Source: Escherichia coli
Lineage (GTDB): Bacteria > Pseudomonadota > Gammaproteobacteria > Enterobacterales > Enterobacteriaceae
NCBI RefSeq assembly: GCF_046105845.1
Contig: NZ_CP151004.1
DNA length: 64,000 nt
Direction: 5' to 3' (one strand)
Shown here: positions 51,059 through 51,187 of the stretch, one piece after another
Numbering within the stretch: position 1 is the stretch's first letter
Layout: every line of letters starts with the position of its first letter
The notes under the pieces: model-generated
The model's input: only the letters and a program-made list of their open reading frames with translations
Told to the model about the DNA's origin: nothing
The model's database searches: none
Made by a program: the position numbers and the translations under genes

Positions 51059-51106
51059 AATAGCCCCTGTAAAATTATGGTTTAGTGAAGCGATCTTAAT
51101 GAGCAA

Positions 51107-51169
51107 ATATGAACAGCGGCACTGGTCAGGATGAACGGCTTACGGCAGAATATGAACAGATATGAACAG
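51107..51169 (-). promoter_or_regulatory. tor boxes (TorR binding decamers) of the torCAD promoter
   Basis: Three exact atatgaacag repeats (rc CTGTTCATAT) plus one degenerate copy (gatgaacgg) in the torC-torR intergenic. Confidence 0.75.
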
Positions 51170-51187
51170 AATGAGTAAAACCCTCTG

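Follow-up and report, generated by a model that had tools for sequence, protein, structure and literature searches.

The torC-torR intergenic region of an Escherichia coli genome carries the canonical K-12 form of the tor box array

Respiration of trimethylamine-N-oxide (TMAO) is under the control of a textbook two-component-system operator, the tor box array. The tor boxes in the torR-torCAD intergenic region of Escherichia coli K-12 are said to have been described by Simon et al. in 1995 and by Ansaldi et al. in 2000. In the latter work, box1 and box2 reportedly made up a site of high affinity that spans the torR start, and torR was repressed independently of TMAO, this negative autoregulation operating via the box1-box2 high-affinity site only. 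Boxes 3 and 4 are said to be low-affinity sites that phosphorylated TorR (TorR-P) fills cooperatively, and the two groups of boxes must reportedly share one helical face. A likeness links the array to the Pho boxes of PhoB-activated promoters (class II-like), with which it shares direct repeats, a periodicity of ~10 to 11 bp, and a winged-helix response regulator bound head-to-tail. As in PhoB promoters, whose layout is well established, the proximal tor repeat lies just upstream of the -10 element in a promoter without a -35 hexamer. The tor array differs from Pho boxes in its consensus and in its arrangement as a contiguous high-affinity pair plus two single boxes at intervals of two turns, with the distal pair serving also as the operator of a divergent autoregulated promoter.

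In published sequences, boxes 1, 2, and 4 read 5'-CTGTTCATAT-3' and box3 reads 5'-CCGTTCATCC-3' (PMC9239176). TorR shifts boxes 1, 2, and 4 in EMSA, whereas isolated box3 is not shifted (PMC9239176). The torCAD promoter fragment is bound by TorR-P but by neither ArcA-P nor FNR (PMC10845959), and PMC9436347 cites torR as negatively autoregulated. The Salmonella enterica array has the same box sequences and offsets as the locus described below, box3 of subsp. diarizonae being also CCGTTCATCC (PMC9239176). It differs in its spacers and leaders, in the box3 of subsp. arizonae (CCGTTCATTC), and in its regulator, since Salmonella TorR is ~81 to 82% identical to the TorR encoded here.

The DNA analyzed (the window) is a 64-kb stretch of an E. 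coli genome (64,000 nucleotides; contig NZ_CP151004.1 of assembly GCF_046105845.1). Its tor locus has the gene order cbpM / torD-torA-torC (minus strand) / torR (plus) / torT (minus) / torS (plus) / yccM, an order that annotation comparison showed to be shared with strain NRZ14408 and, in inverted orientation, with K-12 MG1655. torC (49886-51058, minus strand), the first gene of torCAD, encodes a pentahaem c-type cytochrome (Cytochrom_NNT, E = 3e-71), identified in the domain search as a NapC/NirT-type multihaem cytochrome. The gene at 51188-51880 (plus strand) was assigned as torR by the domains of its product and by K-12 identity; the protein carries the Pfam domains Response_reg and Trans_reg_C and thus belongs to the OmpR/PhoB family of response regulators. 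It is identical to K-12 TorR at 229 of 230 residues, with a single change in the receiver domain (P46 versus S46) and an identical C-terminal DNA-binding domain, i.e., the cognate regulator is encoded beside the array. The two divergent start codons, those of torC (ATG, 51058-51056, minus strand) and torR (ATG, 51188-51190, plus strand), bound an intergenic region of 129 bp at 51059-51187, exactly the interval to which an earlier note on this DNA had assigned the array. The plus-strand text within this region includes ...aaatatgaacagcggcactggtcaggatgaacggcttacggcagaatatgaacagatatgaacagaatgag....

The earlier note had further described three exact copies of atatgaacag and one degenerate copy, oriented on the torC coding strand. 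Exact motif scanning located the three copies of the CTGTTCATAT decamer, all of them on the minus strand, which is the torC strand, and found zero further exact copies in the 64 kb. They correspond to box1 (51160-51169), box2 (51150-51159), which abuts box1, and the promoter-proximal box4 (51107-51116). The degenerate copy is box3 (CCGTTCATCC, 51129-51138, minus strand), which matches the consensus at 7 of 10 positions. All four sequences are exactly equal to the published ones (PMC9239176). By affinities taken from the literature, box1 is the distal half of the high-affinity TorR site and box3 is a low-affinity site. A repeat finder independently recovered the same four-copy family of direct repeats, with start-to-start spacings of 22, 21, and 10 bp; all four boxes are directed toward torC, box1 and box2 are contiguous, and box3 and box4 each lie about two helical turns further on, so that the cluster from box1 to box4 spans 63 bp. 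The spacings of 10, 21, and 22 bp amount to approximately one, two, and two turns, in agreement with the reported requirement for a common helical face.

Exact copies of CTGTTCATAT were expected by chance 0.13 times in the window, against the three observed, and none of 100 dinucleotide-preserving shuffles contained three or more. With up to two mismatches allowed, the whole window held 53 matches versus 49 expected; this absence of window-wide enrichment indicates that the signal is one local cluster. One-mismatch copies in torA and torC (49254 and 50870) and at 7995 were set aside as being at chance level. Two additional half-boxes, TTTACTCATT before box1 and TTGCTCATTA after box4, were rejected because they match the consensus at just 5 to 6 of 10 positions and carry TCAT cores that other genera do not conserve.

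Alignment to E. coli K-12 MG1655 showed base-for-base identity over the whole sequence that begins at the torR start codon and takes in the four boxes and the torC -10 element. In K-12, the four boxes are spaced and oriented in the same way between the same genes, and the window departs from this K-12 array only in the P46 residue of TorR and in two intergenic differences, both in the torC leader (T for C at 51072 and C for T at 51063, minus strand). One of these two substitutions adjoins the Shine-Dalgarno sequence AGGGG. The array of the window is thus already known, canonical in form, and ordinary; it has little discovery value by itself, and since the window carries the canonical allele, any novelty lies in the comparison of genomes. 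Its value is that of a positive control, in which motif recognition from the letters alone proved accurate to the base.

A consensus scan of 50950-51300 returned neither a sigma-70 promoter nor a terminator at the scan threshold, as expected for promoters that are activator dependent or weak, so conservation and the literature were used to place the promoters instead. The torC -10 hexamer was read from the sequence as TAAGAT (51093-51098, minus strand), 8 bp downstream of box4; it is TACTAT in Grimontia, and ...AAGAT has been named as the torCAD -10 site (PMC10845959). The -35 position of the torC promoter reads TGCCGC, a match of 1/6 to TTGACA, which argues for an activator-dependent promoter. 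From the -10 hexamer and the published statement that +48 falls about 20 bp into the coding sequence of torC (PMC10845959), we infer a torC transcription start near 51086 (minus strand), 7 nt after the hexamer, which would give a 28-nt leader. Boxes 1 to 4 would then occupy about -83 to -74, -73 to -64, -52 to -43, and -30 to -21, positions that could be offset by a few bases relative to the published numbering. The torC leader, from +1 to beyond +48, has been proposed as a molybdenum-cofactor-responsive riboswitch (PMC10845959). The predicted fold of +1 to +80 was no better than that of shuffled sequences (z = +0.8), a result that lends the proposed riboswitch no support but hardly bears on its existence, and the 50800-51400 interval gave no Rfam match at an E value of ≤1. 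On the plus strand, TGGTCA (51123-51128) and CAGAAT (51146-51151), separated by a 17-bp spacer, probably represent the -35 and -10 elements of the torR promoter (51123-51151), with a predicted start near 51158, inside box2, which fits the reported coverage of the torR start by the box1-box2 site. The two hexamers fall in the spacers between boxes 3 and 4 (51117-51128) and between boxes 2 and 3 (51140-51151), which contain the minus-strand motifs CTGACCAGTG and ATTCTGCCGTA, respectively. Both spacers are conserved in Escherichia, Salmonella, Edwardsiella, and Providencia, and their cross-genus conservation (0.73 and 0.65) is unexpectedly high.

Considering the box sequences, positions, and spacing, the K-12 identity, the gene context, and the conservation established in this analysis, and taking TorR binding, box affinities, and autorepression from the literature, we put at about 97% the probability that the divergent torR and torCAD promoters of E. 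coli share this element as their canonical TorR operator array. According to the mechanism that we propose, the winged-helix domain of TorR would bind the four direct decamers facing torC. Boxes 1 and 2 would act as a contiguous tandem high-affinity site overlapping the torR -10 element and start on the opposite strand, and by virtue of this overlap TorR bound there would repress torR, whether phosphorylated or not. Upon sensing of TMAO by TorT/TorS, phosphorylated TorR would fill the weaker box3 and box4 cooperatively. Given that 8 bp separate the end of box4 from the torC -10 hexamer downstream of it, in a promoter without a -35 element, we infer that bound TorR-P would replace the -35 contact and recruit RNA polymerase to torCAD. 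TorR-dependent activation of torCAD and autoregulation of torR had both been anticipated in the earlier note. The former is supported by the gene context, the identity to K-12, and the reported TorR-P binding (PMC10845959); the latter finds support in PMC9436347, with the refinement that its sign is negative.

Within E. coli, a 901-bp stretch around the site matched 5,417 of 5,426 complete genomes (best identity, 99.8%), with the genes annotated as torR and torC, and the 63-bp box1-box4 block was 100% identical in 5,100 of 5,416. Six matches to the tor intergenic region fell on plasmid-class records, and a match was missing from nine or ten genomes of the 5,426. For comparison across genera, the box1-box2 20-mer was scanned against one genome per prokaryotic species, which returned 20 loci. 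Fifteen of these lie between or beside torR/torC homologues, in Escherichia, Salmonella, Edwardsiella, Providencia, and Grimontia, and TorR/TorC protein identity falls to about 50% among them. Box3-like and box4-like decamers were present in all 15 tor loci, at offsets of +31 and +53 from box1 (box2, +10); the exception to these offsets is Providencia vermicola, with box3 and box4 at +41 and +63.

Conservation of box1 and box2 in this set is circular because the cross-genus loci were picked by the exact 20-mer, so the unbiased readout is confined to box3, box4, and the spacers. Averaged over ten non-Escherichia species, identity to the window was 0.77 for box3, 0.92 for box4, and 0.93 for the TAAGAT hexamer 8 bp after box4, compared with 0.38 for each of the torR and torC leaders, and two cores, GTTCA in box3 and TTCATAT in box4, were invariant across genera. 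Conservation of box3, box4, and the -10 hexamer is a clear phylogenetic footprint. The comparative data provide an independent footprint that covers the four-box array, the -10 element of torC, and the probable promoter of torR. The remaining five 20-mer loci, on MAG contigs without tor genes and in one case inside an ABC-ATPase reading frame, were taken as chance or unrelated matches. One Lachnospiraceae MAG contig (Firmicutes; CAMWJF010000089.1, 2278-2307) carries three tandem decamers, CTGTTCATAT CTGTTCATAT CTGTTCATCT, with no torR or torC homologue in the DNA retrieved around them. This triplet may have arisen by chance or may be bound by an unrelated regulator of the OmpR family.

The genome comparison also brought up variants in box number. 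In E. coli OkiPb01695 (NZ_AP042570.1, 3972-4059), the torR-torC gap measures 86 bp instead of 129, owing to a clean 43-bp deletion that has its ends in box2 and box4 and corresponds to 51117-51159 of the window. Two adjacent exact boxes remain, immediately before the torC core promoter, and box3 is gone. The deletion looks like a repeat-mediated event, and, being seen in 1 of about 5,417 genomes, it could be an assembly artefact. A five-box allele occurs in UM146 (NC_017632.1, 51-100), UTI89, NU14, PMV-1, and others, in which a 10-bp duplication yields three tandem exact copies of CTGTTCATAT and box3 reads CTGTTCATCC, matching the consensus at 8/10 rather than 7/10 positions; an 83-bp stretch of this allele is shared at 100% identity by at least 18 genome records. 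In Providencia vermicola (offsets +20 to +72 from box1), an extra degenerate box (TTATTCACAT) follows box2, and this one-turn insertion displaces box3 and box4 by precisely 10 bp with the phasing kept. Every insertion variant keeps whole helical turns. It is conceivable, though we rather doubt it, that repeat-mediated changes in copy number recur at the array in natural isolates and make it a minor hot spot, and variants seen in a single genome may be assembly errors. If such a hot spot exists, changes in box number could adjust how strongly torCAD and torR are expressed, or how much their expression varies from cell to cell.

Variation of this kind would also suit a reading of the decamers as a neutral, slippage-prone tandem or dispersed repeat without a regulatory role, or as a chance occurrence. 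The 10-bp duplication of the UTI89 type and the 43-bp deletion in OkiPb01695 change the copy number, and the 20-mer recurs in the five unrelated MAG contigs without tor genes. This reading nonetheless has next to no probability, in view of the 0/100 shuffles with three exact copies, the retention of box positions and cores from Escherichia to Grimontia (Vibrionaceae) within flanks of ~38% identity, and the preservation of whole helical turns by the insertion variants. If the decamers are functional sites, they might be recognized by another OmpR-family regulator such as ArcA, or by FNR, and not by TorR. ArcA-like motifs do overlap the TorR sites, and a weak FNR-like TTGCT(n4)AAGAT overlaps the -10 element (PMC10845959), but only TorR-P bound the torCAD promoter fragment in the in vitro assays with TorR-P, ArcA-P, and FNR of the same study. 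The FNR-like half-site TTGCTC is, moreover, not conserved in Salmonella, Edwardsiella, and Providencia, and we judge recognition by such a regulator in place of TorR to be very improbable.

A further proposal concerns the GTTC/GAAC cores of the boxes, which might mainly be targets of a DNA phosphorothioation (Dnd) system modulating torCAD, as DndCDE competes with TorR for the tor boxes in Salmonella Cerro 87 (PMC9239176). The Dnd effect, however, overlays TorR control, requires a dnd cluster, and leaves the periodicity of the decamers unexplained. No dnd gene cluster was seen in the examined part of the window, and most E. coli strains are not known to carry one. As the main function of these cores in the window, modification by Dnd is therefore extremely unlikely; its role is an overlay specific to dnd-carrying Salmonella and no alternative to the TorR operator array.

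Two further features of the window lie away from the tor locus. Downstream of tRNA-Ser(GGA) (19212-19299), the ~8-kb dgcT-pgaABCD block of NRZ14408 is absent, and its place is taken by about 1.7 kb with an open reading frame (ORF) encoding a DUF2726 domain (19929-20615, minus strand; region 19212-21135), an arrangement found in 667 of 5,426 E. coli genomes. Between efeU and putP, the window carries a 447-aa ORF (27069-28412, plus strand) that is absent from NRZ14408. Its product gave no Pfam or NCBIfam match, and about 643 of the 5,426 E. coli genomes carry the ORF, under the annotation "hypothetical protein."
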